In this document: positions 3,007 through 25,135 of the stretch, in pieces
Layout: each line of letters opens with the position of its first letter
Position numbering within the stretch: position 1 is the stretch's first letter
DNA from: Acidimicrobiales bacterium
GTDB taxonomy: Bacteria; Actinomycetota; Acidimicrobiia; Acidimicrobiales; CATQHL01
DNA: 64,000 nt
NCBI GenBank assembly: GCA_965206165.1
Contig: OZ242194.1
Coordinates: forward strand, 3,513,881-3,577,880
Direction of reading: 5' to 3'
Notes under the pieces: generated by a model
Database searches by the model: none
What the model was told of the DNA's origin: nothing
Seen by the model: only the letters and a program-made list of their open reading frames with translations
Made by a program: the position numbers and the translations under genes

Positions 3007-3033
3007 GTCGTCGGATACAGGTCGTCGGATACA
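3007..3033. repeat. tandem 13-nt direct repeat (14-nt period) in the rpsB upstream region
   Basis: gtcgtcggataca occurs at 3007-3019 and 3021-3033, which reads TGTATCCGACGAC x2 on the rpsB strand. It lies about 80-100 nt upstream of the rpsB ATG. Confidence 0.8.
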
Positions 3034-3058
3034 CGTGGCCCGAAGGCCGCCGGGCAGT

Positions 3059-3607: not shown

Positions 3608-3642
3608 GGCAACGGCAAGTACCGCCGTGGCGGCCGATTTCC

Positions 3643-4551: not shown

Positions 4552-4613
4552 GCATCGAGGTTACCAACCGCGCCCGGCGCGCCGAGGCATGGTGCAACCG
4601 GAGGTCCCCGCCG

Positions 4614-10285: not shown

Positions 10286-11430
10286 CTGCAAACCCCGATC
10301 CGCTCCAGGGCTCCGATCAGACGGTCGACCATGTCGTCGGTGTGGGCGGCCGACAGGGCGACGCGGAGTCGCGAGGTGCCCGCCGGCACGGTCGGAGGAC
10401 GGATGGCCGGTACGAGGAAGCCCTCGTCGAGGAGAGACTCGGCCACACGAACGGCGCGAGCCTCCGAACCCACGATGATCGGCACGATCGGGGACGGATG
10501 ACCGGGACGCAGGCGGTCGGTGAGTCGCCGAAGACGAGCGATGAGCGAGGCTCCTTCGGGGTTCCGCGAGATGCGGATGGCCTCGAGCGCGGCAGCGGCG
10601 TCGGCAGGAGCCAGTCCAGTGGAGAAGATGAATGGTCGGGCCCGGTTCACGAGGAGATCGACAAGGGGACCCGGACCGCACACCGCCCCGCCGAGCGAAC
10701 CCAGGGCCTTCGAGAGGGTGACGACGCGGAGCATCCGGAGCCGCTCGAGCTCCGCGAGTGCGCTGAGCGACGGACCGAACACCGAGTGCGCCTCGTCGAT
10801 CACCAGCAGGGCGCCGCGGCGCGCGCAGCACTCACCGAGCGCGACGACATCGGCCTCGTCGCCGTCCATCGAGAAGACCGCGTCGGTGACAACCATCGTT
10901 CTCGGCGCCTCGGCTCCGCCGAGCAGCTGGTCGACGTGACCGACGTCGTTGTGCCGCGCGATCGCGATCGGCGACCGGCTGAGGCGGCAGCCGTCGATGA
11001 TCGAAGCATGGTTCAACTCGTCGCTGACGACGAGGCAGTCGGGGCCGCCGAGGGTGGCGAGCACGCCGAGGTTCGCGGCATACCCCGTGGGGAAGACCAG
11101 GGCTCGCGCCGTCTTCTTCCAGTCGGCCAGTTCGACCTCCAGATCGGCGTGGACGGGGCGGGACCCGACGACGAGCCGGCTCGCCGTGGCACCGGTCCCC
11201 CAACGATCCAGCGCGGCGTGGGCCGCGCCGATCACGTCGGGGTGACACGAGAGTCCGAGGTAGTCGTTGGACGCAAAGGAGATCACCTCCCGGCCCGCGA
11301 GATGTCCCACTGGTCCCCTGGCGTCGAACGTCCGCACGTCTCGCCACTGGTCGGCGGCGCGGATCGTGCCGAGTTGCTCGCCGGCCCAGGCTTCGAAGTC
11401 CCGGTGCGCCGGGGTGGCCGACCCCGTCAT
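10282..11430 (-). CDS. bioF: 8-amino-7-oxononanoate synthase
   Basis: ORF 10282..11541, start at ATG 11430 (ATGA overlap with the bioA stop). SNDYLGL motif. PLP-lysine context VVTLSKALGSLGG. Confidence 0.9.
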   Translation of the reverse strand: MTGSATPAHRDFEAWAGEQLGTIRAADQWRDVRTFDARGPVGHLAGREVISFASNDYLGLSCHPDVIGAAHAALDRWGTGATASRLVVGSRPVHADLEVELADWKKTARALVFPTGYAANLGVLATLGGPDCLVVSDELNHASIIDGCRLSRSPIAIARHNDVGHVDQLLGGAEAPRTMVVTDAVFSMDGDEADVVALGECCARRGALLVIDEAHSVFGPSLSALAELERLRMLRVVTLSKALGSLGGAVCGPGPLVDLLVNRARPFIFSTGLAPADAAAALEAIRISRNPEGASLIARLRRLTDRLRPGHPSPIVPIIVGSEARAVRVAESLLDEGFLVPAIRPPTVPAGTSRLRVALSAAHTDDMVDRLIGALERIGVCR

Positions 11431-12776
11431 GAGAGAGCCTCGGCCGCATCGACCATGGCGCCGGTGATGCGGCGCAGATCTTCGGCGGTGCTGATGTAGG
11501 GCGGCATCGTGTAGAGAAGCCGCCCGAAGGGGCGCAGCCACACTCCCCGGTCGAGGAGAAGCTCCTGTGTCGCGGCGGCGGGCACCGGGTCAACCGTCTC
11601 GATCACGCCGATGGCCCCGAGCACCCGCACGTCGGCCACACCCGCCAGCGTGGCGGCCGGCGCCAGTCCTGTCTCGAGGGCTTCTGCAATCGAGGCCACC
11701 TCGCCGGCCCAGGGCCTCGACAGAAGCAGCCGGACAGAAGCCAGGGAGACGGCGGCCGCCAGGGGATTGCCCATGAAGGTGGGTCCGTGCATGAGCGCCC
11801 CGGACTCCGCGGCGCTGACCCCCGCGGCCACTTCTGCGGTGCACAGCGTCGCCGCCATGGACAGGTAGCCGCCGGTGAGTGCCTTGCCGACGCACATTAT
11901 GTCGGGGCGGATCCCGGCGTGGTCGCAGCCGAACAACCTGCCCGATCTGGCGAAGCCGGTGGCGATCTCGTCGGCGATGAGCAGCGTGCCGTGCTCGTCG
12001 CAGAGTCGTCGGACCTCCCGGAGATACTCCGGGGAGTAGAAGCGCATCCCGCCGGCGCCCTGAACGACCGGCTCGAGAATGACGGCGGCGATCTCGTCAC
12101 AGTGGTCAGCGAGCAGCCCGGCGAACCCGGCGATGTGGTTGGCACCGAAGGGTTGGCCGAAGCGAGGCTCGGGAGCCGGGGCGAACAGTTGGGGAGGAAG
12201 GACGCCGGCGAACATCGAGTGCATCCCGGTCACCGGGTCGCAGACCGACATGGCCCCCAACGTGTCGCCGTAGTAGCCCGAGGCGACGGTGAGCAGGCGC
12301 GTCCGCTCGGGCCGGCCGGTGCCGCGTGCGTACTGCAGTGCCATCTTGATGGCGACCTCCACGGACACCGAGCCGGAGTCGGCGAAGAAGACGTGCTCGA
12401 GCCCGGCCGGAACGATCTCGACGAGCAACTCGGCGAGTTCGACCGCGGCGGGGTGCGTGATGCCGCCGAACATGACGTGGGCGACCGCCTCCAGCTGTTT
12501 GCGAATGGCCTCATCGAGAACCGGGTGGCGATGCCCGTGGATGGCAGCCCACCACGACGACATACCGTCGATGGCCTGCCGCCCGTCGGCCAGGTGGAGC
12601 GTGGTGCCTTCGGCGGCCACGACGGGGACCGCCGGAGAGACCGACGGCATCGGGGCGTAGGGGTGCCAGACCCGTTTCCGATCGCGCGCAACCAGATCAA
12701 GGTGCTTCCGGTGCTGAACCTCGCCCGGATCGACGGTGCGGGCAGCACCCTTGGCTACCGCATCGCCGGTGGTCAT
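11427..12776 (-). CDS. bioA: adenosylmethionine-8-amino-7-oxononanoate aminotransferase
   Basis: ORF 11427..12941, start at ATG 12776. Class-III aminotransferase motifs SSWWAAIHGHRHP, DEIATGFARSGRLFG, CVGKALTGGY. Confidence 0.9.
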   Translation of the reverse strand: MTTGDAVAKGAARTVDPGEVQHRKHLDLVARDRKRVWHPYAPMPSVSPAVPVVAAEGTTLHLADGRQAIDGMSSWWAAIHGHRHPVLDEAIRKQLEAVAHVMFGGITHPAAVELAELLVEIVPAGLEHVFFADSGSVSVEVAIKMALQYARGTGRPERTRLLTVASGYYGDTLGAMSVCDPVTGMHSMFAGVLPPQLFAPAPEPRFGQPFGANHIAGFAGLLADHCDEIAAVILEPVVQGAGGMRFYSPEYLREVRRLCDEHGTLLIADEIATGFARSGRLFGCDHAGIRPDIMCVGKALTGGYLSMAATLCTAEVAAGVSAAESGALMHGPTFMGNPLAAAVSLASVRLLLSRPWAGEVASIAEALETGLAPAATLAGVADVRVLGAIGVIETVDPVPAAATQELLLDRGVWLRPFGRLLYTMPPYISTAEDLRRITGAMVDAAEALS

Positions 12777-12988
12777 GGGTCGTCCCGGGACACGGGGCTT
12801 GCCTCGCCGGGACCGCCGGAACTCGTGGCCGTCCGGCACCTGCGGCACTCGGCCTTCCAGCCCGTCGGCTGAACGGTTACCCGCAGCAGACGGCCGCACT
12901 GCCGGCAGTAGCGGGGCGCCTCGTACGGGGGGTGCCCGCACCGATCACAGTGACGAGAACCGCACCACGGGCAGAACGCCCCGGCCAT
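12773..12988 (-). CDS. small cysteine-rich protein between bioB and bioA (candidate biotin synthase auxiliary protein, BsaP-like)
   Basis: ORF track 71 aa: MAGAFCPWCGSRHCDRCGHPPYEAPRYCRQCGRLLRVTVQPTGWKAECRRC..., with four CxxC pairs. It starts 5 nt after the bioB stop, and its own stop overlaps the bioA ATG (ATGA). Confidence 0.55.
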   Translation of the reverse strand: MAGAFCPWCGSRHCDRCGHPPYEAPRYCRQCGRLLRVTVQPTGWKAECRRCRTATSSGGPGEASPVSRDDP

Positions 12989-12993
12989 GGTCG

Positions 12994-14022
12994 TCAGATC
13001 ACGCCGGAGAGGGCGCCGATCGGCATCGCCAGATCATCGAGCATCCGTAGGTCCTCGTCGGGCTGGCGGCCCAGGGTGGTGAGATAGTTGCCGACGATCA
13101 GGGCGTTGATGCCGGCCGTCATGCCCATGGCCTGATATTCCCGCAGGGTGATCTCCCGGCCCCCGGCGTAGCGGAGAATCACGCCGGGAAGAGCCAGTCG
13201 GAACAGGGCTATCCAGCGCAAGGCTTCGAGCGGCCGGAGCGGCTTGCGAATCTGCAGCGGCGTGCCGGGACGCGGGTTCAGGAAGTTGAGCGGCACCTCT
13301 GCCGGCTCGAGCGACTGGAGTTGCCCCAACAGCTCGACCCGCTGGGCGACGCTCTCCCCCATGCCGAGAAGCGCCCCGCAGCACAGTTCCATGCCGTGCC
13401 GGCGGACCAGGAGGCACGTCTCGAAACGCTCCTCCCAGGTGTGGGTGGTGACGATACGACCGAAGAAGCTCCGCGATGTCTCCAGGTTGTGGTTGTAGCG
13501 GTGCACACCGCCGGCGGCCAGCCGCCGCGCCTGGTCGTCGGTGAGGATGCCTGCGCTCACCGCGACGTTCAGACCGGTCTCGGCTTCGATGAGCGGCACC
13601 AGCGAGATGATCCGCTGCAGCGTGCGCTCGTCGGGACCCCGAACGGCCAGGACCATGCAGAACTCGCTGGCCCCCGTCCGGGCCGTCTCTTGCGCCGCGG
13701 CGAGTACTTCGTCGGTGTCGATGAACGGTGTCGCCGGCAGTGTCTCGGAGAAGCGGGCCGACTGGGAACAGAAGTGGCAGTCCTCGGGGCAGCCGCCCGT
13801 CCTCACCGACAAGATGCCCTCGATCTCGACGGTCGGACCGCACCACTCGAGGCGGACCGCATGCGCCAGCGCCGCAAGCGCCGGGACATGCTCGTCGTTG
13901 AGGCGGGCCAGGGAGTCCAACTCCTCGGCACCCAGGAGGCGGCGCTCATCGAGCAGGGCGCCCTCGGCGCACCGCAGCAATTGCCGAGCCGTCGCAGCAG
14001 CACCGGTGGGGGCGGAATGCAC
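12994..14022 (-). CDS. bioB: biotin synthase (radical SAM)
   Basis: ORF track 342 aa. Radical-SAM cluster motif CPEDCHFCSQS. The GTG start shares one base with the TAG stop of the upstream KipA-like gene. Confidence 0.93.
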   Translation of the reverse strand: MHSAPTGAAATARQLLRCAEGALLDERRLLGAEELDSLARLNDEHVPALAALAHAVRLEWCGPTVEIEGILSVRTGGCPEDCHFCSQSARFSETLPATPFIDTDEVLAAAQETARTGASEFCMVLAVRGPDERTLQRIISLVPLIEAETGLNVAVSAGILTDDQARRLAAGGVHRYNHNLETSRSFFGRIVTTHTWEERFETCLLVRRHGMELCCGALLGMGESVAQRVELLGQLQSLEPAEVPLNFLNPRPGTPLQIRKPLRPLEALRWIALFRLALPGVILRYAGGREITLREYQAMGMTAGINALIVGNYLTTLGRQPDEDLRMLDDLAMPIGALSGVI

Positions 14023-14990
14023 TACCCGACCGCCTCTCGGAGGCCATGGAGTCGGGCGGTCCGGTCCCGGCGGGCACCAAGGGCCGTCTGGAGGTCGACC
14101 TCGACGAACCGGGTCGTGATATTCGGCGCCGACTGGCCGACGTGGTCCATGTCGGCGCTGATAACGGTCCCCACCATGACGTAGCCGCCGCCGGACACGG
14201 CGTCGCGGTGCAGCACGATCGGTTCGACCCCGCCGGGGATCTGGATCGATCCGATGGGGTACGGGGCATCGACGATGTTGGAAGGATCGCTGCCTGCGCC
14301 GAACGGCGCAACACGATCACGGAAGTCGAGCACGGCCCCCCGGTAGCGGAATCCGGTCCGGTCGGCGACGGGCGTGAGACGCCACTCGGTCTCAAGGAAT
14401 GTCCGGCGGGCGGCGTCGGTGAGACGATGGTCGTAGAGGCCCATCATCACCCTGATCTCACGATGACGCGGATGCGTACTTCGCAGCTCCTCGGGAACGG
14501 ACCGGCCCGGCGCGACACCATCGTGGTGGCCGATCGGGAGCTCGTCGCCCGCCACAAGAGGTCCGCCGTGCAGTCCGCCGAGCGCCCCGAGAGCGTAGGT
14601 CGAGCGGCTGCCGAGCACCGCCGGCACGGCGAAGCCGCCGCTGACGGCGATGTAGGCCCGCGCCCCGGAGGCCAGGAAGTCGAACGACAGAACGTCACCC
14701 GCGCCGACGGCGAAACTCTCCCAGGTCGGTCGGGGCCCACCGTTGAGCCGCGGCGGAAGCTCGGCTCCGGTCACGGCCACGGTGGTCGACTGGTCGAAAC
14801 GCAGCTCGGGCCCCATGTAGGTGCATTCCAGGACGGCCGCTTCGTCGCTATTGCCGACCAGGATGTTGGCAGCCACCGACGAGTACTGGTCGAGCGACCC
14901 CGACGGGGGGATGCCCACGTTGTAGTAGCCCGGCCGGCCCGTGTCCTGGACGGTGGTGGCGATGCCGGGCACCAGGACGCTAACTCCCAT
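14022..14990 (-). CDS. KipA / PxpC family protein (allophanate hydrolase subunit 2 family, carboxyltransferase-like)
   Basis: ORF track 322 aa. MGVSVLVPGIATTVQDTGRPGYYNVGIPPSGSLDQYS...AYIAVSGGF...GDELPIG is typical of KipA/PxpC. Confidence 0.85.
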   Translation of the reverse strand: MGVSVLVPGIATTVQDTGRPGYYNVGIPPSGSLDQYSSVAANILVGNSDEAAVLECTYMGPELRFDQSTTVAVTGAELPPRLNGGPRPTWESFAVGAGDVLSFDFLASGARAYIAVSGGFAVPAVLGSRSTYALGALGGLHGGPLVAGDELPIGHHDGVAPGRSVPEELRSTHPRHREIRVMMGLYDHRLTDAARRTFLETEWRLTPVADRTGFRYRGAVLDFRDRVAPFGAGSDPSNIVDAPYPIGSIQIPGGVEPIVLHRDAVSGGGYVMVGTVISADMDHVGQSAPNITTRFVEVDLQTALGARRDRTARLHGLREAVG

Positions 14991-15873
14991 GGAGAACCTC
15001 CATCAGGCCGCGGTTGTACCCGCCGGGATCGGCCAGGAACTCGCCCAGCGAGAACTCCACGGGCGCCTGCTTGAACCGGAACCGCCTCGCGGTCACCTGG
15101 GCCGTCAACTCGTCGTAAGCCTCCCGGTCGATGGGCTCGAACTTCGCAATTGTCCCCGGTTTGAAGAACACCAGGAAGTCGTCGAAGTCGGGGTGGGTCT
15201 GGGTCGGGTCGTAGATCGGAGCCGGCGTGATGCCGAACATCTGGTACCCGCCCGCGCCGCGCACCGAGTAGATGCACCCGAAGCAGCCGCCGTGGCCGAT
15301 CGTCTGGCGCGGGGTGTCGGTCCGCGGCGTGAGGTACTTCGGGACCTCGAGTTGGCGCTCCCGCGGCACCATCTGGAACAGGAACGGCAGGCCGGCCACG
15401 AAACCGACCATCGACGTGAACCAGGGCGAGCCCGAGTGGGCGGCGATGAAGCCGTCCACCGAGTCGAATCCGTTGATCCGGGCGGCGTACTCGAGGTCGG
15501 TGCCGTCGGGGTTCTGGTGATGCGACCGGAACCGCATGAGGGTCTCGCGGGTCCAGGGGTCGTTGTAGAGGACCGGCACCTCGACAATGCTCGTCTGCAG
15601 GTCGAACCCGGTGCCGTCACCGACCTCCGCCTCGATCGATTCGAGTTCACCGAGAAGATCCAGCGGTTCGATGCGATCGGGGTCGAAGCGGACCTGATAC
15701 GAGGCGTTGGCCGGGCAGATGTCGATCACACCGTCGATACCGCGGTCGCCGAGAGTGGAGGTGATCGCCATCACCTTGAAATTTGCCTCGAGGTTCATCT
15801 CCTCGTCGAGTTCGACGTAGAGATGGTCGTCCCCGCCGAAGCTGTGCCGGGTCGTGGACCGGCCGTTTCTCAC
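14980..15873 (-). CDS. KipI / PxpB family protein (allophanate hydrolase subunit 1 family)
   Basis: Lower part of ORF 14980..16236. Start GTG 15873 lies 13 nt after the biotin carboxylase stop, with AAGGGGA in between. DDHLYVELDEEMNLEANFKV...ICPANASYQVRFDP...GCFGCIYSVRGAGGYQMFG. Confidence 0.85.
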   Translation of the reverse strand: MRNGRSTTRHSFGGDDHLYVELDEEMNLEANFKVMAITSTLGDRGIDGVIDICPANASYQVRFDPDRIEPLDLLGELESIEAEVGDGTGFDLQTSIVEVPVLYNDPWTRETLMRFRSHHQNPDGTDLEYAARINGFDSVDGFIAAHSGSPWFTSMVGFVAGLPFLFQMVPRERQLEVPKYLTPRTDTPRQTIGHGGCFGCIYSVRGAGGYQMFGITPAPIYDPTQTHPDFDDFLVFFKPGTIAKFEPIDREAYDELTAQVTARRFRFKQAPVEFSLGEFLADPGGYNRGLMEVLHGS

Positions 15874-15886: not shown

Positions 15887-17242
15887 TCACGTTCCGAGCC
15901 AGCGCTCGACAAAGCCGGTGTCGTAACTGCCGTCGACCACTTCGGGGGTCGACAGTAGGTCGCCAATGAGCGGGGCCGTCGTCTTGATGCCGACAATCCG
16001 CAGTTCGCGCATCGCCCGGCGGGCGCGCGCCAGAGCAGCCGGCCGGTCGACATCCCAAACAATGATCTTGGCGATGAGAGAGTCGTAGAAGGGCGGTACG
16101 GCGCTGCCCGGCCGCATTGTGGTCGAGGTGCGGACCCCGGGGCCCGCCGGCAGGTCGATGTCACGGATCGTTCCCGGGCAGGGCATGAAGCCGTTGGCCG
16201 GATCCTCGGCGTTGATGCGCATCTCGATCGCCGCACCCCTCGGCTTCACATCCTCCTGAGTGAACGAGATGGGGAGGCCGCCGGCTTGGCGGAACTGCTC
16301 GCGCACCAGGTCGAGCCCGCAGATCATCTCGGTCACCGGGTGCTCCACCTGGATCCGGGTGTTCATCTCGATGAAGAAGAACTCCTCGGTGGCACTGTCG
16401 ACGAGGAACTCGACGGTCCCGGCACCCTCGTAGGCGACCGCGTCGGCGAGTGCCAGCGCGGCGGTGTGCAGGCCGGCACGAACCGCAGGGCTCAGGCTGG
16501 AGGCGAGGGCCTCCTCGATCAGCTTCTGGCGCCTGCGCTGCAGAGAACACTCGCGCTCGAACAGGTGGATCGCGCGGTCACCGTCGCCGAACACCTGCAC
16601 CTCGACGTGGCGGGCGCTGGGGATGTAGCGCTCGAGATACAGGCCGTCGTCGCCGAAGGCAGCCCGGGCCTCGTTCCGTGCGGCAGTGATACAACCAGCC
16701 AGATCGTCCGACTGTTCCACGATACGGATCCCGCGGCCGCCGCCGCCTGCGGAAGCCTTGACCAGCAGCGGGAAGCCGATCGTCGCCGCCGCCTCCGTCG
16801 CTTCCTGAACCGAGCCGATCCCACCTGCGGTGCCGGGTACGACCGGCACGCCGACCGACGCGGCCGTCTCCCGTGCCGCCGCCTTGTCGCCCATCAGCGA
16901 GATGGCCTCAGGCCGCGGTCCCACGAAGCGCAGACCCAACGCAGCGCAGCGTGCCGCGAATGCCGCGTTCTCCGACAGGAACCCGTAGCCCGGATGGATG
17001 GCGTCGCAGCCCGCCGCCAGGGCGGCACCGATGATGGCGTCCGCGTCGAGGTAGCTCCGCGACGCGGGCGGAGGGCCGATCTCGACGGCCTCGGTGGCGA
17101 GACGCACGTGACCGGCATCCCGATCGGCCTCGGAGTACACCGCGACGGTGTCGAGCCCGAGTTCCTCCGCGGCTCGGATGACCCGCATGGCGATCTCGCC
17201 GCGGTTGGCGACGAGCACCCTTTTCAAGGGACGGGGGCTCAT
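15887..17242 (-). CDS. biotin carboxylase (ATP-grasp, AccC family)
   Basis: ORF 15887..17626, start at ATG 17242 (ATGA overlap with the BCCP stop). MSPRPLKRVLVANRGEIAMRVIRAAEELG...HPGYGFLSENAAFA...EMNTRIQVEHPVTE. Confidence 0.93.
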   Translation of the reverse strand: MSPRPLKRVLVANRGEIAMRVIRAAEELGLDTVAVYSEADRDAGHVRLATEAVEIGPPPASRSYLDADAIIGAALAAGCDAIHPGYGFLSENAAFAARCAALGLRFVGPRPEAISLMGDKAAARETAASVGVPVVPGTAGGIGSVQEATEAAATIGFPLLVKASAGGGGRGIRIVEQSDDLAGCITAARNEARAAFGDDGLYLERYIPSARHVEVQVFGDGDRAIHLFERECSLQRRRQKLIEEALASSLSPAVRAGLHTAALALADAVAYEGAGTVEFLVDSATEEFFFIEMNTRIQVEHPVTEMICGLDLVREQFRQAGGLPISFTQEDVKPRGAAIEMRINAEDPANGFMPCPGTIRDIDLPAGPGVRTSTTMRPGSAVPPFYDSLIAKIIVWDVDRPAALARARRAMRELRIVGIKTTAPLIGDLLSTPEVVDGSYDTGFVERWLGT

Positions 17243-17472
17243 CGGTTGACGGTGAACAGCACCTGGCCGGCGTCGACCATCTCGGCATCGGGGACCTCGA
17301 CGGTGGCGATCGTCCCGGCCACCCCGGCCGGCACGTCGAAGAACTGCTTCATGACCTCGACGAGGGCGACCACGGTGCCGGCCTCGACCGGGCTGCCGAC
17401 ATCCACGAACGGATCGGCCCCCGGCGAGGGGCGCCGGTAGAACACACCGGGAATGGGCGACCTGATGTCCAT
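17239..17472 (-). CDS. biotin carboxyl carrier protein (single biotinyl domain, 77 aa)
   Basis: ORF 17239..17559, start at ATG 17472 with GGGAGGA upstream. MDIRSPIPGVFY...VVALVEVMKQFFDVPAGVAGTI contains the biotinyl-lysine motif (V-M-K). Confidence 0.88.
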   Translation of the reverse strand: MDIRSPIPGVFYRRPSPGADPFVDVGSPVEAGTVVALVEVMKQFFDVPAGVAGTIATVEVPDAEMVDAGQVLFTVNR

Positions 17473-17474
17473 GC

Positions 17475-17879
17475 TCACGGGTGTCCTCCCACGGTCGGAC
17501 CGTCCTCGGGCTGCGGAGGCTGCAGCGCGTAGTCCCACACCTTGGCGATGATCTGCCACCTGCCGTCCTCGCGCACGAACACCAACTCGTCGATGAACAC
17601 CTTCGGCAGGTAGGCGAGCCGGGCACGCACGTGGGCCGTGACCGGTGTCGCCGAACTCAGCGAGAGCAACTCGTCGAAACGGTCGTCCTCCCGGGCAGCG
17701 GGAGACGGCCGGCCGCCAATCAGGGCCAGGTACGCCTCCTTGTCGATGGTCAGTCCGTCCCGCCGGCAGACAAGGCGGATCTCGGGATGAAGGACCGATC
17801 CCAGCAGTTCGACGTCGCCGTGGTGGATCCCGTCGAAATAGGCGGCCATCGCCTCGGTGAGTTCGCTGATCGCGCTCAT
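17475..17879 (-). CDS. NTF2-like (SnoaL / lumazine-binding-like) protein
   Basis: ORF 17475..17954, start at ATG 17879 (ATGA overlap with the upstream stop). MSAISELTEAMAAYFDGIHHGDVELLGSVLHPE...VFVREDGRWQIIAKVW is the usual NTF2-family pattern. Confidence 0.7.
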   Translation of the reverse strand: MSAISELTEAMAAYFDGIHHGDVELLGSVLHPEIRLVCRRDGLTIDKEAYLALIGGRPSPAAREDDRFDELLSLSSATPVTAHVRARLAYLPKVFIDELVFVREDGRWQIIAKVWDYALQPPQPEDGPTVGGHP

Positions 17880-18598
17880 GAGAGGTACGGGGCGAGCGCC
17901 GCCCTGACGGCGGCGGCCAGCTCGACGGCGCCGGGAGTGTCGGAGTGGACGCACACCACGTCGGCCCGCATCGGTATCTCGGTCCCGTCGTTGGCGACCG
18001 CCACGTTCTCGGTCACCGCCCGGACAGCGCCGGCGGCCGCCTCGCCGGGATCGACAGCGACGTGCTCGCGGGTGATGATCAGGCCACCGTCGGGCCGGTA
18101 CTCCAGGTCGGTGTAGTACTCGGCGTAGAAGCCCTGGGGCCTTTCACCCCAGACCTCCTCGTGGGTGGTGTTCGCCATGCCCATGAGGGGGACGTCGAAG
18201 GCGTCGGCGGCGGCGGCGACCGCCGCGGCCACGTCGGGGTCGCGGGCCGCCTGGCCGTAGAGAGCGCCATGGGCCTTGATGTAGCCGAGTTGCATCCCTT
18301 CGGCGGCCAGAAAACCGCTGAGGGCACCGGCCTGGTAGATCACCGCGGCCGTTAGTTCCTCCGGATCCATGGCCATGGCCCGGCGGCCGAAACCCTGCAG
18401 ATCCGGATAGGAGGGGTGCGCCCCCACCGTGACCCCATGCCGCTTGGCCAGCCGCACGGTCCGCTGCATGACGCTGGGATCGGAGGCGTGGAAACCGCAC
18501 GCCACGTTGGCCATGTCGAGGTACGGCATGATGGCGTCGTCGTCGCCGCAGCGGTAGATGCCGTATGCCTCGCCCATGTCACAGTTGATTGCGACCAT
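17876..18598 (-). CDS. LamB/YcsF (PxpA) family protein
   Basis: ORF track 240 aa. MVAINCDMGEAYG...MANVACGFHASDPSVMQRTVRLAKRHGVTVGAHPSYPDLQGFGRR is a strong LamB/YcsF signature. Confidence 0.9.
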   Translation of the reverse strand: MVAINCDMGEAYGIYRCGDDDAIMPYLDMANVACGFHASDPSVMQRTVRLAKRHGVTVGAHPSYPDLQGFGRRAMAMDPEELTAAVIYQAGALSGFLAAEGMQLGYIKAHGALYGQAARDPDVAAAVAAAADAFDVPLMGMANTTHEEVWGERPQGFYAEYYTDLEYRPDGGLIITREHVAVDPGEAAAGAVRAVTENVAVANDGTEIPMRADVVCVHSDTPGAVELAAAVRAALAPYLS

Positions 18599-18616: not shown

Positions 18617-18952
18617 CTAGGGTCTTGCGGTCTTGGGTGAGTCGCCGCCGGGGTCGACGAAGACGTCATCGCCCCTGATCTCGGCGGGATAGTTGGCGAT
18701 CTCGGCGTGGTCGGGGTTGATGCCCCGGCAGGTCACGAGATCGAACTCCCAGAGATGCTGGCTGCAGATCAAGGTGTTCTTGTAGAGGTCACCCTCCACG
18801 AGCGCCACCCTCTGGTGGGGACAGTAGGCCTGGGTGGCGCGCACGATGCCACCGTCAAGATGCGCCACGAGCACCTCGGTGCCGTCCACCTCGAAGACCC
18901 CCATGTCGCCTTCCCACAGGTCATCGAGGCTACAGACGCGGGCGAACGCCAT
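18617..18952 (-). CDS. Rieske [2Fe-2S] ferredoxin of multicomponent monooxygenase (TmoC-like)
   Basis: ORF track 111 aa. MAFARVCSLDDLWEGDMGVFEVDGTEVLV...CPHQ...CSQHLWEF. By my recollection it is close to T4MO ferredoxin throughout. Confidence 0.9.
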   Translation of the reverse strand: MAFARVCSLDDLWEGDMGVFEVDGTEVLVAHLDGGIVRATQAYCPHQRVALVEGDLYKNTLICSQHLWEFDLVTCRGINPDHAEIANYPAEIRGDDVFVDPGGDSPKTARP

Positions 18953-18996
18953 CAGGGCGGTCCCACGGTGCTGAATCGACGTTGCTCAGCAGTCTC

Positions 18997-19992
18997 CTAG
19001 CCGTCACTGGCCGCGAGGCCGACGCTGTGGTGGAACTCACGCATCGACGCCGCCCCGGTCGCGGCGCTGCCGGGAACGTCCGGAAGCGCTCCGACGAAGG
19101 ATTCGAGAGCGGACACCCCATGCGGGGTCCAGGCGTCGAGCCACTCCAGCAGCTGCGCCCGATTCGACTCGACGCCGAGCATGTGGCCGACAAGGGCCTG
19201 CGCCCAGCGCCGCGACCGGTCACCGTCCCGCAGAGCCGCCTCGGCCATCAGCGCCAGCAGCGTGTCATCGTTGCGCCGCGCGCTCTGCGCCATCGCCCGA
19301 TGGAAGCCTTCGGAGATCGCCGGCAGCGCCACCAGGTTCAATGCGACGAAGGCCTCCGCCCAGTCGTAGGTGACCAGGGTCCGCTCCATCAGTTCCCGGT
19401 AGCCCTGCCAGGCCGAAGCGTTCTCCCACGCGGCGCGTTCGCTATCGCCGAACGACCGGTCGGGGTGCGCCTTCGCCAGCGACGCCGTCCGGTAGGCGAT
19501 CCGGGACAACCAGCGCAGTGCATCGGCGGTCTGGAAGGCCGCGCAGTTGCAGATCGTGCTGGCGGGCGCCATGTGCACGAGGTAGGCCGAGGCCATCTGG
19601 CTGGTGTGGATCAGGTACCGCCCGGGGGTGTACAGAGCCTCGAGCGCGTCGAGCCAGGCGCCGGGAAGGCTCTCGTCGTGTCCCTCGCTGTCGTACTGAT
19701 CCGCCAGCCCGTCGACATAGGACTCCTGGCCGTCCTGGAGGATGTTGTACGTGCGGTAGACCATCTCGTCGGGATCGCGGAACGAATCCCAGTCGTCGTG
19801 CGTGATCGGGCTGTTGTCGCGGTAGCGCATCACCCAGTCGTTCATGAAGCTGGCGCCCTCGACCTCGAATGGCACCTGCTCGCCCCGGGCGTGCCAGAGC
19901 AGACCGGTCGAGACGATCTCGTACTCCGACGGCCGCCGGCGCTGGCCGACCAGATGACTCCACGTTCTGAGCGGCTTGAGTACCTCAGTCAT
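18997..19992 (-). CDS. soluble diiron monooxygenase hydroxylase beta subunit (TmoE-like)
   Basis: ORF track 331 aa. N-terminus LKPLRTWSHLVGQRRRPSEYEIVS is characteristic of toluene/alkene monooxygenase beta subunits. Confidence 0.88.
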   Translation of the reverse strand: MTEVLKPLRTWSHLVGQRRRPSEYEIVSTGLLWHARGEQVPFEVEGASFMNDWVMRYRDNSPITHDDWDSFRDPDEMVYRTYNILQDGQESYVDGLADQYDSEGHDESLPGAWLDALEALYTPGRYLIHTSQMASAYLVHMAPASTICNCAAFQTADALRWLSRIAYRTASLAKAHPDRSFGDSERAAWENASAWQGYRELMERTLVTYDWAEAFVALNLVALPAISEGFHRAMAQSARRNDDTLLALMAEAALRDGDRSRRWAQALVGHMLGVESNRAQLLEWLDAWTPHGVSALESFVGALPDVPGSAATGAASMREFHHSVGLAASDG

Positions 19993-20275
19993 GGCGTTCT
20001 CCCAGGTAGAAACGAATCACTTCGGTCGAGGTGTCGATCCGGCCCGCGAAGCTGGGCATGTTCGCCTCGAGTTCGTGCAGCTTGAACGGCCGTCCCAGCT
20101 CCCGTTCGACCGAGGCACGGGTGATCACGCACTCGCCCTCGACCTGGATCCGGACGTACGAACCGCGGTCCACAACGTTGACCGCCCGCCCGGCGTTGTC
20201 CTCCTCAGCAGCCGCCACAACGGCTCGGGCAACCTCACCGCTCTGGATCACGGGACCGACGGTGCCGACGCTCAT
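19985..20275 (-). CDS. monooxygenase effector/coupling protein (MmoB/DmpM family, TmoD-like)
   Basis: ORF 19985..20278. Start is ATG 20275 or GTG 20278, both overlapping the upstream TGA, with GAGGAGG upstream. VGPVIQSGEVARAVV...DRGSYVRIQVEGECVITRASVERELGRPFKLHELEANMPSFAGRI. Confidence 0.9.
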   Translation of the reverse strand: MSVGTVGPVIQSGEVARAVVAAAEEDNAGRAVNVVDRGSYVRIQVEGECVITRASVERELGRPFKLHELEANMPSFAGRIDTSTEVIRFYLGERHD

Positions 20276-20532
20276 CACGCCTCCTCGTAGTAGAAGTCGA
20301 GTGTCTGGGTTGGCGCCAGACCGGCTTCGGCCACCGTCATGTCCAGCGGCAGCGGCTCGGTCTCGCCCGCTTTCCGGGCACGGATGACCCCGCCCTCACC
20401 GGCGACGTGCAGGCCGATCACGTTCTCCGTCGCCGCCTCGGCGACCTGGGCCATGGTGTGCTCGGTGTCGACGACGAGAAGCTTCAGCACGAAGTCCCCG
20501 TAGAAGTTCACCGAGAGTGGGAATGCTGCCAT
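20275..20532 (-). CDS. TmoB-like small (gamma) subunit of toluene/alkene monooxygenase
   Basis: ORF track 85 aa. MAAFPLSVNFYGDFVLKLLVVDTEHTMAQVAEA parallels the TmoB N-terminus as I recall it. Confidence 0.8.
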   Translation of the reverse strand: MAAFPLSVNFYGDFVLKLLVVDTEHTMAQVAEAATENVIGLHVAGEGGVIRARKAGETEPLPLDMTVAEAGLAPTQTLDFYYEEA

Positions 20533-20544
20533 CGGTCGTTCCTC

Positions 20545-22038
20545 CTATGCCGCGTCGGCACTCTCGACATAGGCGGAGACCCACTCGTAGTCGTGGGCGT
20601 CGCCGCCGCCGTCGCTGAGCACGCCGATGCCCATGTACTGGAGCACGCCGCCGAGGTCGGGCGGCTGGATCTCGCCGGCGAGCAGGCGATCAACGATCGT
20701 CTTGTGGGCGGCGTAGCGCTCCGGGTCCTGCTCGAAGATCCAGCGATCGGGCTCCGAGCCGAAGTGGTAGAGCCGCCCGTTGTACTCCAGCGGGTAGTCC
20801 TGGGTCGTCTTGAACGGCGTCCCGACGATCGGGATGTTCGACATGTTGCAGATCATCGGCAACGTGCCGGGAACGGTCCTGGCGATATCGCCCCGCTTGA
20901 GGTTCTCGATGATGACGTCCCAGCACTTGCCGAAGGTGTCGTTCCACCCCGGGTACTTCTCCTCGAGCCAGTCGCGCTCGTCGGGGCCCACACCGGCCGC
21001 CGGCGAGAACCACAGGGTGGGCCGCCACGACCACGTGCCGAGTTGCTGACCGTGGTGATGCTCGTCGATGTCGGCCAGGAACATGTCCCAGTACCAGGGC
21101 TTCGCCAAGCCCAGGTCCTCCAGGCTGTTGACGAACTGCGTGACGATCCACTCTTGCATGAACTCCTTGAACGATCCCTCCCGTTTGTCCAGGGGGATGT
21201 AGTAGTCCATCGGGATGCCCGTCAGGATCGTGAACAACTTCCACGACCGCCAGAACGCCACGTCGACGAGGCGCTGAGCCCGCTCCTTCTCGCCGTTCTC
21301 GATCAGCATCGACAGAATCGGTGTGCCGATCTGGGCGTGGCGGGCCTCGTCGGACTGGATGCTCTGGATCAGCTTGGAGAAGCTGAAGTCCCCGGCGTTG
21401 GCCGCATCCGACGAAAGGCCGATGAACTGCAGGTTGGTGAACCCGGTCTCGAACGCGAAGTTCAACAGGATGGATGTCGAGATCGCGTCGCGGGTCATCA
21501 TCATGTCGTCGAAGAAGTGACGGCCCGCGATGATGCCCCAGTTGTTGGACTTCATGCCCGAATGGGCCCAGTCGAACTGGCGATCCGTCGGTACGTACTC
21601 GTGGGGGAAGAACAACTGGAGTTGCGCGTGGCGGATCTCGTCGAGCATCCCGAACGTGCCCATGTTCCGCATGCCCGGGGACCGGGACCAACGCACGAAC
21701 CGCGACTCCATGAGGGCGGCGTTGTACTCGACGACCGATACCGCGCCGTAGTGGAGTTTCAAGGTGCTGATCCACCCTGGATCCACCTTGGAGCGCAGGT
21801 CCATGCGTTCCAGCGCCGCCTTGACCGAGTAGGCCCCGGCGTCCTTCTGGCGCTGGATGTCGACGTACTCCCGGTAGCTGATCTTGTACGGCTCGTCGTA
21901 GGTGGACCACACCTCGTCGGGAATGTCGTAGTCGCCGCTGTGCCCGGAGGGATACAACTCGTCCTCAGTGACATAGCCGGGTGTCCACTCCGTGCGCCGC
22001 GCGATGTCGTACCACTCGCTCCGCTCGAGCAAAGCCAT
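20545..22038 (-). CDS. soluble diiron monooxygenase hydroxylase alpha subunit (TmoA-like)
   Basis: ORF track 497 aa. Both diiron ligand motifs are present (FGMLDEIRHAQLQ and SIQSDEARHAQIG). N-terminus SEWYDIARRTEWTPGYVTEDELYP. AAGGAGA RBS upstream. Confidence 0.93.
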   Translation of the reverse strand: MALLERSEWYDIARRTEWTPGYVTEDELYPSGHSGDYDIPDEVWSTYDEPYKISYREYVDIQRQKDAGAYSVKAALERMDLRSKVDPGWISTLKLHYGAVSVVEYNAALMESRFVRWSRSPGMRNMGTFGMLDEIRHAQLQLFFPHEYVPTDRQFDWAHSGMKSNNWGIIAGRHFFDDMMMTRDAISTSILLNFAFETGFTNLQFIGLSSDAANAGDFSFSKLIQSIQSDEARHAQIGTPILSMLIENGEKERAQRLVDVAFWRSWKLFTILTGIPMDYYIPLDKREGSFKEFMQEWIVTQFVNSLEDLGLAKPWYWDMFLADIDEHHHGQQLGTWSWRPTLWFSPAAGVGPDERDWLEEKYPGWNDTFGKCWDVIIENLKRGDIARTVPGTLPMICNMSNIPIVGTPFKTTQDYPLEYNGRLYHFGSEPDRWIFEQDPERYAAHKTIVDRLLAGEIQPPDLGGVLQYMGIGVLSDGGGDAHDYEWVSAYVESADAA

Positions 22039-22104: not shown

Positions 22105-22845
22105 TCAGGAGCCGTGCGCCGAGCCGAGCGGCCCCTCGCCGCCCGGATAGCAGAACGAGATCGCCGGTGAGTAGAAGCCGAACGTGACCTCGAGAGGGTC
22201 CGCCGGCCGCAGGTCCCACGTCGGATGGCCCGAGTCGAGGAACTCCAGCGACACAACTTCGAACTCCGCGGCGAAGTCGGCTACGAACGGGTACCGCCCG
22301 CTGACCATCTCACCATCGACTCGGGTGACGTACCGCAGCTGTCCGGTTCCTCGAGCCGGGTTACCGACGACCACGTCGCAGACGGTACGGATGATCGGGT
22401 TCCCTTCGACAATGGTCGTCGCCGTCAGCGTCCCGCCATCGAGGTCCAGATCGGTTCGCCCCTCCGAGATGGGCACCCCGTGGGCCGCGGCGTAGCGGTT
22501 CATGGCGACACTGCTGTTCATGTAGTGGGTCCACCAGCGGGCGGGAACCCCCGCCTCGGTGTCGAGGCCGGCGAGATCGAGCCCCAGATAGGTCAGCGAG
22601 TAGGCGCCGAACGAGTCCGGCTCCCCGGCCGAGGAGATCTGCGACTCGTCGTCGACGACGTACTGGTTCATGTAGCAGAGACTTCCGTCGGTCGGCATCA
22701 ACCCGTCGGGCACGAGCGCGGCGGCTGCGTCCGGATCGGCCGGCTTCCACACGAGGTACAACATCCGAGCATCCGTGATGAGCTGCGGCGCATGCGCGAA
22801 ACCGGTCATTCCGAACTCCTCGACCCGTGTACCGACTACCGACAT
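22105..22845 (-). CDS. hypothetical protein, possibly acetoacetate-decarboxylase-like fold
   Basis: ORF track 246 aa. Its size and the N-terminal pattern ARMLYLVWKPADPDAAAALVPDGLMPTDG... remind me of ADC-superfamily proteins, but the assignment is weak. It is clearly coding, with an RBS and tight packing. Confidence 0.35.
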   Translation of the reverse strand: MSVVGTRVEEFGMTGFAHAPQLITDARMLYLVWKPADPDAAAALVPDGLMPTDGSLCYMNQYVVDDESQISSAGEPDSFGAYSLTYLGLDLAGLDTEAGVPARWWTHYMNSSVAMNRYAAAHGVPISEGRTDLDLDGGTLTATTIVEGNPIIRTVCDVVVGNPARGTGQLRYVTRVDGEMVSGRYPFVADFAAEFEVVSLEFLDSGHPTWDLRPADPLEVTFGFYSPAISFCYPGGEGPLGSAHGS

Positions 22846-22867: not shown

Positions 22868-23665
22868 TTAGGGCAGTTCGGGCAGGCCTTCGGCAGGCAT
22901 CCGGCGGTGGCTCTCGGCGGTGGCGCGGGTCATGAGGGGCTCGGTGCCCAGCGATTCGAGCAACTCGGTGGCCGCCTCCACCTCGCCAAGACGGCGCACG
23001 CTGTGCGTGCCGGTTCCCTCCAGCAAGCGGCGCAGGAACGCTTCGTCGAGCGAACTGAGCTGATGGATGAGGTTCTCCCACGTCTCAGCCGATAACCCTG
23101 CCTGCTCGGCGGCCCGCATGGATTCGATGATCAGCGCCGGGAGGCCTTTCATCACCACGCTGCGCAGCAACTTCCGAGTGGCCGCGAGACCTGCGGTGGC
23201 ACCGATCGGCTCCACCGGCACCCCGGCGGGCGTCAGCATCTGAACATAACGCTCGGCGCCGGGGCCGGAGGCCAGTGAGGCGGTGAACAAGCCGTTGCCC
23301 GGCACCATCGCCATCAGGGCCACGTCCACGAAAGCCAGCGAGCGGGACGCGGCGACGGCGGCGAGGTCCTGCTTGCGGGCGACCGAGGCGGTTGACAGGT
23401 CCGCGTACACGGCATCTGCAGGGATCTCGTGCAGGGCCTGCGTCAGTGCACCCATGGCGTCGGCCGCGGCGGTCGCGGCCATCACCAGGCCCGCACCCTG
23501 GACAGCCTCCCGGGGGTCGTCGGTCTGGCGCACACCCTCCGGTGCCGGCCGGGGAGCGGGGTCGTAGCCGGTGACGGTGGCGCCGGCCGACGCCAGATCC
23601 GCCGAGATGAGGGAGCCGGCCTCGCCGAGACCGAAGAACCCGACGGTCAGCCCGGCAAGGGTCAT
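22868..23665 (-). CDS. NAD(P)-dependent oxidoreductase, 6-phosphogluconate/3-hydroxyisobutyrate dehydrogenase-like
   Basis: ORF 22868..23965, start at ATG 23665. N-terminal Rossmann motif VGFFGLGEAGSLISADL. The helical C-terminal domain fits the 6PGDH-NADP-binding family. Confidence 0.7.
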   Translation of the reverse strand: MTLAGLTVGFFGLGEAGSLISADLASAGATVTGYDPAPRPAPEGVRQTDDPREAVQGAGLVMAATAAADAMGALTQALHEIPADAVYADLSTASVARKQDLAAVAASRSLAFVDVALMAMVPGNGLFTASLASGPGAERYVQMLTPAGVPVEPIGATAGLAATRKLLRSVVMKGLPALIIESMRAAEQAGLSAETWENLIHQLSSLDEAFLRRLLEGTGTHSVRRLGEVEAATELLESLGTEPLMTRATAESHRRMPAEGLPELP

Positions 23666-23753
23666 GGGCTCGGCCGGTCGGGGACGAGATCCGAACCGCC
23701 GAGGCTCATCATCGGTCCGCCGGCAATCAGAAGTCCGGCCGCCGCGCTCGTCG

Positions 23754-24458
23754 CTACCCCGCGTCCAGGTCGTCGAGTCGATCGACGTGGACGACGCCGA
23801 GTTCGGCCAGCTTCGCGCCCAGGCCGGCGATGTCGAGGGACAGCTCACCCGCCGCGAGTCGCGCCCGGGTGACCTCCTCGGCGGCCAGGCGCTTGCGGGC
23901 ACCCTCCAACGCCTCGGCCGCCTGCAGCCGGGGCACCACGACCACGCCGTCGTCGTCGGCAACAACCACGTCGCCCGGATGGACGGACTGCTGGCCGAGG
24001 GTGATCGGCACGTTCACCCAGCCGGGCGTGGTCTTCATGGGACCCTGGCAACCGACGTGCTGGGACCACACGCCGAATCCCATGGCGCGGATCGGCTCGA
24101 CGTCGCGCACCGCCCCGTCGGTGATGAGACCCACCCCACCCCGGGCCGCAGTGGACGTGGCCATCAACTCCCCGAACAGGCCGTTGCTGGAGGGTGCGGT
24201 GCTGGCGACCACCAGAACGTCGCCCGGCTCCAAGAGCGCTATTGCGGCGTGGATCATGATGTTGTCGCCGGGGTGGACCAGCACGGTGATCGCCGAGCCG
24301 GCGATCCGGAGACCCTGCTGGAGGGGCCGGATGTGCGAACCCACGAAGCCGTGCCGACCGATCGCCTCGTGCACGGTGGAGGTGTCGATCGAGCGGAATT
24401 CCTCGACCAGCGAACGAGGGGCGCGCTCGACGTTGCGGACGACGACGTTGGGGTTCAT
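23754..24458 (-). CDS. RraA-family protein (4-hydroxy-4-methyl-2-oxoglutarate aldolase / oxaloacetate decarboxylase-like)
   Basis: ORF track 234 aa. PGDVLVVAS...GLFGELMATSTAARGGVGLITDGAVRDV...PGDVVVADDDGVVVVP is the RraA/HMG-aldolase pattern. Confidence 0.8.
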   Translation of the reverse strand: MNPNVVVRNVERAPRSLVEEFRSIDTSTVHEAIGRHGFVGSHIRPLQQGLRIAGSAITVLVHPGDNIMIHAAIALLEPGDVLVVASTAPSSNGLFGELMATSTAARGGVGLITDGAVRDVEPIRAMGFGVWSQHVGCQGPMKTTPGWVNVPITLGQQSVHPGDVVVADDDGVVVVPRLQAAEALEGARKRLAAEEVTRARLAAGELSLDIAGLGAKLAELGVVHVDRLDDLDAG

Positions 24459-25135
24459 GACCGACCCCCATCACCCGGGTCGACCCCGTGGGAGGCCAGG
24501 AAGGCGAGCGTGCGCTCCAACGCCAGCGCGGCCGCCTCGGCGTGATAGGAGTCGCGAGCGTCGCAGTTGAAGCCGTGGTCGGCGCCGGGATACACGTGCA
24601 CCGGCACCGTGGGGTGCGCCCGGGTGATCGCCTCCACATCGGACAGCGGGATCATGTAGTCCACCTCGCCGAAGTGCAGCAGCATCGGCGCCTGCGGGGC
24701 GCGGTCGAGGAAGGGGATGATCTGGCCGCCGTAGTAGCCGACGGCGGCGGCAACGGGCAAGGCGTTCGCTGCCAGCCAGGCGAGGCTGCCGCCGTAGCAG
24801 TAGCCGACCACCCCGACCGGGCCGTCGCCCGAGAGGTGGGCGACCGCCGCGCCGACGTCGCGCACGGTGTCGTCCCAATCGATGGCGCTGCGCATCGCCC
24901 GGCCCTGGGTCACCGTGTCGGCGGTGTAGCCCAGCTCCACCCCCCGCTCGAGGCGGTCGAACAGGGCCGGCGCGGTGGCCCGGAAGCCCAGGGCTCCGTA
25001 GCGGTCCACGACGTCGCGGATGTGGGCGTTCACCCCGAAGATCTCCTGGATGATCACGATCCCTGCGGCGGCGGTGGTAGGGCCGGCCTCGTAGGCGTCG
25101 AGTTCGTGACCGTCGTCGGCGGTCAGTCGAATCAT
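24455..25135 (-). CDS. dienelactone hydrolase family protein
   Basis: Lower part of ORF 24455..25831, start at ATG 25135. IVIIQEIFGVNAHIRDV...VGVVGYCYGGSLAW (nucleophile Cys motif G-x-C-x-G)...GADHGF. ATGA overlap with the next gene. Confidence 0.85.
   Translation of the reverse strand: MIRLTADDGHELDAYEAGPTTAAAGIVIIQEIFGVNAHIRDVVDRYGALGFRATAPALFDRLERGVELGYTADTVTQGRAMRSAIDWDDTVRDVGAAVAHLSGDGPVGVVGYCYGGSLAWLAANALPVAAAVGYYGGQIIPFLDRAPQAPMLLHFGEVDYMIPLSDVEAITRAHPTVPVHVYPGADHGFNCDARDSYHAEAAALALERTLAFLASHGVDPGDGGRS

Follow-up and report, generated by a model that had tools for sequence, protein, structure and literature searches.

The window analyzed here is a 64,000-nt stretch of contig OZ242194.1 from an Acidimicrobiales bacterium, which is numbered from its first letter as position 1. 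At 18617–22038 on the minus strand, it encodes a complete hydroxylase (alpha, beta and gamma), an effector protein and a Rieske ferredoxin of a group-2 soluble diiron monooxygenase (SDIMO) of the toluene/o-xylene-monooxygenase type. The enzyme belongs to a distinct, uncharacterized clade of group-2 SDIMOs, which is found mainly in Actinomycetota and in a few Burkholderiales and Alphaproteobacteria. In the Acidimicrobiales lineage of the window, a clean deletion removed the ~1-kb TmoF-type reductase gene once this lineage had separated from a relative (locus L092) that has an 88% identical alpha subunit. The explanation that we favor, and consider reasonably probable, is that the SDIMO is intact, has recently lost its reductase and receives electrons through a reductase encoded elsewhere; with lower confidence, we propose that its product passes to a carboxylase module encoded in the same operon.

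A monooxygenase clade with its own gene order

The cluster consists of five tightly spaced, intact open reading frames (ORFs) in the order alpha-gamma-effector-beta-ferredoxin (A-B-D-E-C), in a window of ~70% GC. The gamma gene starts 12 nt after alpha, and the effector ORF overlaps both the gamma stop and the beta start.

20545–22038, minus strand: SDIMO hydroxylase alpha (TmoA/TouA-like, 497 aa); Pfam Phenol_Hydrox 7.5e-69 and YHS
20275–20532, minus strand: hydroxylase gamma (TmoB-like, 85 aa); Pfam TmoB 8.2e-22
19985–20278, minus strand: effector/coupling protein (MmoB/DmpM family, 96–97 aa); Pfam MmoB_DmpM 8.4e-28
18997–19992, minus strand: hydroxylase beta (TmoE-like, 331 aa); Pfam Phenol_Hydrox 3e-65
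18953–18996, minus strand: beta-ferredoxin spacer of 44 nt, the site of a ~1.0–1.1-kb TmoF-type reductase gene in clade relatives
18617–18952, minus strand: Rieske-type [2Fe-2S] ferredoxin (TmoC-like, 111 aa); Pfam Rieske 3.9e-15, CPHQ...CSQH ligands

An initial annotation, made from the letters of the window, had described these five subunits as a toluene/alkene-type monooxygenase with the diiron motifs MLDEIRHAQ and SDEARHAQ in alpha and CPHQ...CSQH in the ferredoxin. The ORFs, the Pfam matches and the motifs bear this out, including both diiron motifs. The alpha subunit aligns over its full length to TouA of toluene/o-xylene monooxygenase (ToMO; 1t0q_A, E 1.6e-217, ~62% identity) and to TmoA of toluene 4-monooxygenase (T4MO; 3dhg_A). 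In an alignment to TouA, residues E104, E134, H137, E197, E231, H234 and T201 are unchanged across the window and 19/19 clade sequences. All six iron ligands are thus kept and the genes are intact, with none of the missing ligands or truncations that the initial annotation had named as signs of non-functional genes. Clade-specific changes map to the pocket (I100V, G103V and T193N in ToMO numbering), together with a two-residue deletion at ToMO 411–412; by sequence, the three substitutions would fit a substrate other than toluene. The window therefore contains the group-2 components (a diiron alpha, a TmoB-type gamma, a cofactor-less MmoB/DmpM effector and a Rieske ferredoxin) and departs from the group in gene order and in the lack of a cis-encoded reductase. 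Its lineage consists of Acidimicrobiales metagenome-assembled genomes (MAGs), of which L001 has an alpha 99% identical to that of the window, and eight public contigs carry a protein identical to the window alpha.

To compare gene orders, the components were mapped by tblastn on 80 genome loci encoding alpha relatives. Canonical loci (alpha ≤66% identity) run alpha-gamma-ferredoxin-effector-beta, followed by the reductase where the flank is sufficient, which is the order that had been stated for tmo, tou and iso clusters. At ≥66% alpha identity, 20/20 loci (L001–L019 and L050) run alpha-gamma-effector-beta-...-ferredoxin. The initial annotation had also called for an alpha phylogeny; in neighbour-joining trees, which are without support values, the twenty loci with the arrangement ADC-like/A-B-D-E-(F)-C/PxpA (ADC, acetoacetate decarboxylase) are monophyletic. 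The majority of clade loci have a ~1.05-kb gene with Fer2, FAD_binding_6 and NAD_binding_1 domains between beta and the Rieske ferredoxin (L008–L011, L013–L019, L081, L086, L088–L090, L092, L094 and several metagenome loci), and the clade order is therefore A-B-D-E-F-C. Relative to tmoABCDEF, this is one relocation, in which the ferredoxin gene alone moved from the third to the last position. The ancestral operon of the clade comprises an ADC-fold protein, alpha-gamma-effector-beta-reductase-ferredoxin, and PxpA, biotin carboxyl carrier protein (BCCP), biotin carboxylase (BC) and the carboxyltransferase (CT) proteins CT(C-D) and CT(A-B).

These comparisons change how the arrangement in the window is to be read. 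The order indeed differs from that of tmo, tou and iso clusters; however, it is not idiosyncratic, being fixed throughout a clade that normally has the reductase. The PxpA gene 18 nt beyond the ferredoxin (17876–18598) was correctly located, but it does not occupy the reductase slot, as had been proposed: the reductase site of the relatives is the gap between beta and ferredoxin, which measures only 44 nt here. Nor does PxpA replace the reductase, since it is conserved after the ferredoxin in every clade locus, whether the reductase is present or not. The literature searched contains no characterized clade member and no description of the clade or its operon, and we found no SDIMO subgroup in which this arrangement has already been characterized, which the initial annotation had named as possible counter-evidence. 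Among plasmids, the collection searched holds only canonical toluene monooxygenase (TMO) or isoprene-type clusters, with no alpha above 65% identity and no plasmid-borne clade member.

Compared with TouABCDEF of Pseudomonas sp. OX1 and TmoABCDEF of P. mendocina KR1, the window system shares the iron ligands, T201, the TmoB-type gamma, the MmoB-type effector and the Rieske ferredoxin, and its clade relatives also share the Fer2-FAD-NAD reductase. In contrast, the ferredoxin gene of the window is last and not third, the reductase is gone in the window lineage, and the pocket has residues of its own. The annotated flanks contain no phenol-hydroxylase or meta-cleavage genes, and the linkage to ADC-fold, PxpA and biotin carboxylase genes is fixed. 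Xanthobacter Py2 employs a six-component alkene monooxygenase followed by epoxide carboxylation to acetoacetate. This enzyme (XamoABCDEF) is also a group-2-type SDIMO, with an alpha 46% identical; however, its gene order is canonical, and the Py2 carboxylation uses coenzyme-M enzymes and 2-KPCC, not biotin. A check of the window and of the annotated flanks of relatives revealed no coenzyme M genes.

Loss of the reductase and the source of electrons

The absence of an FNR-type reductase from the 64 kb, as first reported in the initial annotation, is confirmed by two tests. In tblastn searches of the window with the clade reductases of Nocardia africana and L092, the best E is 0.25, and Pfam scans of ~58 window ORFs (those supported by GC content at third codon positions, GC3, or remaining) reveal no Fer2, FAD_binding_6 or NAD_binding_1 domain. 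The 10 kb past the left window edge contain housekeeping genes and no reductase. The sole flavoprotein found in the 64 kb (OYE and Pyr_redox_2 domains, FadH-like; 40257–42350) lies 18 kb off among unrelated neighbors. At the protein and DNA levels, no trace of the reductase is detected in either the 44-nt window spacer or the 80–160-nt spacers of L001–L005.

The gene is kept in L092 (alpha 88% identical to the window), in L090 (79%) and probably in L091 (75%), and is missing in the window, L001–L005, L083–L085, L096 and L098. Since L092 keeps it, the loss in the window lineage is recent. A single ancient loss across all Acidimicrobiia was rejected because closer relatives such as these retain the gene. 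L006 and L007 lack it independently of the window lineage, and it is also gone in L012 (Saccharopolyspora shandongensis) and L050 (an Actinomycetota MAG); from the tree, at least four losses occurred independently. S. oryzae (L089), the sister of S. shandongensis, has an intact reductase and an intact ferredoxin, and the two cultured species thus form a natural comparison with and without the reductase. Rather than an ancestral design, the missing reductase reflects a deletion that is recent, clean and recurrent.

The retained reductase of L092 (6992–7999) is itself unusually isolated, with 63% identity to the closest relative in the database and ~44% to the one after it, and its precomputed Pfam annotation is without NAD_binding_1. 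These features may reflect a relaxed constraint that preceded the loss.

Selection on the remaining genes was estimated from the ratio of nonsynonymous to synonymous substitution rates (dN/dS) between the window and L002–L004, with dS up to 0.65 and influenced by a strong GC3 bias. The ratio is 0.07–0.10 for alpha, 0.10–0.12 for the ferredoxin, 0.05–0.20 for the effector, ~0.15 for beta and 0.12–0.28 for gamma. L002 and L003 share a post-deletion spacer (95% identical over 152 nt), and between them dN/dS is 0.06 for alpha and 0.09 for the ferredoxin. The remaining genes have thus stayed under strong purifying selection, and the low values, including those of this pair, argue that the hydroxylase and the ferredoxin have been working after the loss. 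Activity of the window enzyme with a reductase provided in trans is probable.

In such a system, electrons from NAD(P)H would reach the Rieske ferredoxin by way of a flavoprotein reductase whose gene lies elsewhere in the genome, and would then pass to the diiron center, which would hydroxylate or epoxidize a small unsaturated or (hetero)aromatic substrate. Yen and Karl (1992) reportedly obtained T4MO activity in E. coli from tmoABCDE without tmoF, which only increased it, such that enzymes of this type can be served by surrogate reductases. The most likely electron supply is therefore a reductase that is unlinked to the operon. A reductase encoded elsewhere, one of the two sources offered by the initial annotation, is the most reasonable, with none encoded nearby. 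A non-canonical partner encoded in cis is improbable for the reasons given below.

Several observations weigh against a working, trans-supplied enzyme. The search, which covered the 64 kb and 10 kb beyond the left edge, identified no candidate trans reductase. In L012 (13050–13420) and L050 (13050–13400), the same deletion took the N-terminal half of the ferredoxin, including the first Cys-x-His, and the alpha match is split in L005 and L050, which is read as a frameshift; because of these cases, reductase loss can be the first step of decay. The spacers of the window lineage (44–160 nt) are not alignable between sublineages, and one shared deletion in this lineage is parsimonious but unproven. 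The trees were built by neighbour joining without bootstrap, and the chemistry downstream of the oxygenase is deduced purely from gene linkage.

An early stage of decay, in which the reductase loss inactivated the monooxygenase and the other genes show no visible degradation so far or are maintained for a different reason, is nevertheless unlikely. Besides the truncated ferredoxins of L012 and L050 and the split alpha of L005 and L050, it accords with the at least four reductase losses in the clade and with the loss, in the window lineage, of a divergent regulator that is present in L092 and L007. However, the five genes are intact in the window, L001–L004, L083–L085, L096 and L098, and all iron ligands are invariant. 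The dN/dS values of 0.06–0.2 are reached at dS up to 0.65 and include the post-deletion pair L002 and L003, and a dead ferredoxin gene would not hold a dN/dS of ~0.1.

We regard as still more doubtful that a non-canonical donor encoded in cis has replaced TmoF, which could be another flavoprotein in or near the operon or the NAD_binding_2/DUF1932 protein encoded upstream. This NAD-binding protein is encoded on the same strand and is unique to the window lineage, but it has no flavin- or FeS-binding Pfam match, and by domain content it therefore cannot alone reduce a Rieske centre. A possible precedent is offered by the independently reductase-less L007, which has an FAD/NAD(P)H reductase of the SIP/FAD_binding_9 type in its operon; however, the SIP-type gene occurs neither in the window nor in any other locus, and the only flavoprotein in the 64 kb is the distant FadH-like one. 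The L007 gene (Actinomycetota MAG083, 14561–15367) belongs to the siderophore-interacting-protein type of the FNR superfamily, is located directly after the PxpA and NTF2-like genes, and may be a non-orthologous TmoF replacement.

Relocation of the reductase gene within the genome, with an orthologous TmoF-type protein still serving the oxygenase, is just as doubtful as a cis-encoded donor. Reductase genes of multicomponent oxygenases are frequently unlinked, and the genome search reached no further than the 64 kb and the 10-kb left flank. Against this, a search with the L092 reductase of 5.8 billion proteins, of which the best 120 matches are listed, returned the query itself, one 63% identical relative on a 1.7-kb contig and others at ≤45% identity, mostly from Proteobacteria where named. 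None of these 120 is on a contig as long as the 3.3–3.9 Mb Acidimicrobiales chromosomes, other proteins of which the database contains; a divergent copy could fall outside the best 120. A relocated orthologue thus appears unlikely from the sequence matches, and supply by a reductase encoded elsewhere that is not its ortholog remains the reading we prefer.

The conserved oxygenase–carboxylase operon

The SDIMO genes are embedded in a longer predicted operon, in which adjacent genes overlap or are separated by gaps of <70 nt from the ADC-like gene through bioB. A promoter and terminator scan, which is otherwise uninformative, predicts no terminator between these two genes.

22868–25135, minus strand: genes for an NAD_binding_2/DUF1932 dehydrogenase-like protein, an RraA-like aldolase family protein and a dienelactone hydrolase; Pfam
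22105–22809, minus strand: ADC-fold protein without catalytic lysine (234 aa), directly upstream of alpha; AlphaFold model, Foldseek
17876–18598, minus strand: PxpA / LamB-YcsF family protein (240 aa); Pfam LamB_YcsF 1.9e-86, NCBIfam PxpA subfamily 263.6 bits (cutoff 226)
17475–17879, minus strand: NTF2-like protein (Lumazine_bd_2, 134 aa), a lineage-variable accessory; Pfam Lumazine_bd_2 1.7e-21
17239–17472, minus strand: BCCP (77 aa); Biotin_lipoyl on the L083 orthologue, 98.7% identical
15887–17242, minus strand: BC (451 aa); Pfam Biotin_carb_N, CPSase_L_D2 and Biotin_carb_C, NCBIfam 658 bits
14980–15873, minus strand: CT(C-D) (PxpB/KipI-like, 297 aa); Pfam CT_C_D 1.2e-36
14022–14990, minus strand: CT(A-B) (PxpC/KipA-like, 322 aa); Pfam CT_A_B 8.1e-85
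10282–14022, minus strand: bioB, bioA and bioF; Pfam Radical_SAM and BATS, Aminotran_3, Aminotran_1_2

PxpA, BCCP, BC, CT(C-D) and CT(A-B) follow the ferredoxin in every clade locus with enough flank, and the ADC-fold gene immediately precedes alpha in 20/20 clade loci and in no canonical locus. All of these genes are missing from the canonical TMO loci. This coupling had escaped the initial annotation; it is conserved across the clade, and we judge it to be the real peculiarity of the system.

The module contains all components of a urea-carboxylase-type enzyme (BC, BCCP, CT(A-B) and CT(C-D)), which are split over four genes. BC matches urea carboxylase residues 2–440 and CT(A-B) matches residues 449–762, while the best NCBIfam match of CT(C-D) is to residues 807–1077 (102 bits, versus 69.8 bits for PxpB with a cutoff of 145.6). 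CT(A-B) also exceeds the cutoff of the NCBIfam 5-oxoprolinase/urea amidolyase family domain (248 bits) and scores 182 bits against the PxpC equivalog (cutoff 500). BCCP has an EVMKQ motif, which we take to be the usual biotinyl-lysine context. Together, the pieces cover the urea carboxylase model TIGR02712, which is a better match than the PxpB and PxpC equivalogs; each piece scores 102–501 bits, far under the cutoff of 1304, and the assignment does not reach the equivalog level.

As in urea carboxylase and urea amidolyase, the BC, BCCP, CT(A-B) and CT(C-D) parts jointly span TIGR02712. In contrast to these enzymes, the parts are four genes that are predicted to be co-transcribed with an oxygenase, and no amidase-signature allophanate hydrolase is found among the annotated window ORFs. 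The module also resembles the fungal LamA-LamB system in having a neighboring gene for a LamB/PxpA protein; LamA (UniProt P38095) is reportedly urea-carboxylase-like. Lactam catabolism in Aspergillus nidulans involves lamA and lamB (PMC8016842). Different lactams are the substrates of PxpABC paralogues, for example butyrolactam for P. putida PP_2920-2 (bioRxiv 10.1101/2021.12.09.472016). The window PxpA scores above its subfamily cutoff and the CT proteins are PxpB and PxpC homologues; however, both CT proteins fall short of the PxpB and PxpC equivalog cutoffs, and the window has BC and BCCP, which PxpABC does not need. The module is thus distinct from a PxpABC 5-oxoprolinase, of which only PxpA passes its cutoff.

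Most actinomycete clade members (L010–L018, L012, L050 and L089) have an additional, divergent pair of CT_A_B and CT_C_D genes (PxpC/PxpB-like) upstream or downstream of the cluster, which lacks accompanying BC or BCCP genes. It is 33–41% identical to the in-operon pair and does not occur in the window lineage. A distinct lactam hydrolase of the PxpABC type could arise from this pair and the single PxpA.

The biotin genes continue the operon. The bioB gene overlaps the CT(A-B) stop, and bioD (AAA_26) follows bioF, as seen in L093, such that the bio genes span 9641–14022 of the window on the minus strand. In L088, a BioY transporter gene follows CT(A-B) in place of the bio genes. This arrangement suggests that the bio genes are co-expressed with the biotin enzyme as its cofactor supply.

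Other members of the neighborhood vary among lineages. The NTF2-like gene is found here and in Burkholderiales, and also in L007 and L086; the Nocardia, Gordonia and Streptomyces clade loci have a 4-OT tautomerase gene, and a GST, ABM or Polyketide_cyc2 gene occurs within or next to the cluster in other lineages. The three genes at 22868–25135 are conserved only in the window lineage (L001–L005 and L083–L085); at that upstream position, other clade members have a GntR, PucR or LysR regulator. The NAD_binding_2/DUF1932 ORF of the window ends four codons earlier than its L083 counterpart. The 2-oxoacid dehydrogenase genes by the Nocardia africana cluster were set aside, as they are not conserved in other members. 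No Rfam riboswitch match is found in the window or in four related loci.

The ADC-fold protein has no Pfam match (Pfam ADC is not reached at E≤0.01), and a profile sequence search of the ADC-like family against the PDB returned nothing, such that a fold search was needed. Its AlphaFold model has a mean predicted local distance difference test (pLDDT) score of 90.1. The Foldseek matches of this model are Sbi00515, MppR and ADC (E 6e-12 to 1e-9), and those in the PDB include 4zbo, 6eej, 4jmc and 3bh2 (E 6e-12 to 9e-11, TM 0.6–0.69). On the strength of this model, the 22105–22809 protein is assigned the double-barrel fold of the acetoacetate decarboxylase superfamily. In an alignment of 24 homologues with 62–96% identity, no Lys is invariant or 90% conserved, and the family is therefore not a Schiff-base decarboxylase.

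Among 80 metagenome loci with the ADC-like family, two main contexts are seen: the ADC-like gene followed by the SDIMO operon, and SDR-HyuA-HyuB followed by the ADC-like gene. Occurrence without an SDIMO, with the ADC-like gene directly downstream of SDR-HyuA-HyuB, is seen among L095 and the metagenome loci L101–L158. The Thermoleophilia MAG L095 has its ADC-like gene together with BC/BCCP/CT/LamB, a set that resembles acetone carboxylase and includes Acetone_carb_G, and a caprolactamase-like HyuA/HyuB pair, which scores best against caprolactamase CapA/CapB; it has no SDIMO. In the same locus, the ORF at 2868–6710 has HyuB-like, Acetone_carb_G and CT_C_D regions in a single reading frame.

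The conserved oxygenase-carboxylase context suggests an undescribed catabolic pathway. The SDIMO would hydroxylate an sp2 carbon, and tautomerization, possibly by the variable tautomerase or NTF2-type protein, would yield a lactam- or ketone-like intermediate for the module. This product may then be processed by PxpA, the ADC-fold protein and the urea-carboxylase-like enzyme, which would depend on ATP and biotin; both of these steps are proposed with lower confidence than the oxygenation. The logic would resemble that of urea amidolyase or of fungal LamA/LamB lactam utilization. The gene linkage suggests that the module handles the intermediate by ATP-dependent carboxylation or ring opening; a lactam- or ketone-like compound is proposed because of the ADC-like contexts, with the caprolactamase-like pair in L095, and the lactam-linked PxpABC and lamA/lamB. 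That the ADC-fold family also occurs behind SDR and caprolactamase-like HyuA/HyuB, and that one MAG without an SDIMO has both systems, points to a common lactam or carboxylation chemistry.

More tentatively, this may be a pathway widespread in soil Actinomycetota, a proposal that we consider possible but less probable than not to hold in full. The SDIMO would form an enol or lactim product, which would be tautomerized, would then be opened or activated by the carboxylase and PxpA, and would be finished by the lysine-less ADC-fold enzyme. A small N-heteroaromatic compound (pyrrole-type) or another unsaturated compound would be a plausible substrate, and the reductase would be dispensable, being repeatedly shed or swapped, as for the SIP type in L007.

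Significance and other features of the window

In work on the oxidation of aromatics and alkenes, group-2 diiron monooxygenases are used both as markers and as catalysts. The loci described here define a large, uncharacterized sister clade, distinguished by gene order and pocket signature, with members in cultured Nocardia, Gordonia, Saccharopolyspora, Streptomyces, Nocardioides and Oryzobacter, as well as in numerous soil MAGs. In surveys of marker genes, the genes of this clade would be scored as 'toluene monooxygenases', whereas the gene context points to a different physiological substrate. For the combination of an oxygenase with a biotin-dependent urea-carboxylase-like enzyme, PxpA and a biotin supply, no described precedent was found, and the fixed coupling gives a direct experimental entry, through cultured strains, to a new pathway. 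The recurrent reductase losses are natural experiments on the dependence on a dedicated reductase, for example in S. oryzae versus S. shandongensis. The missing reductase alone is modestly interesting, as a derived, recurrent and probably tolerated loss; it is the oxygenase-carboxylase operon that merits follow-up.

Three further features of the window lie outside the operon. At the right end, where GC is lower (58%), a luciferase-like monooxygenase is encoded at 62371–63561 beside a YceI-like protein, and it has no entry in the protein collection. The F420 biosynthesis genes cofD and cofE are located at 47329–49051. An 822-aa protein with 15 RCC1_2 repeats is encoded on the minus strand at 28938–31406, where the GC skew reaches −0.24 (30–32 kb); in related contigs, this protein is divided into two RCC1-repeat genes.

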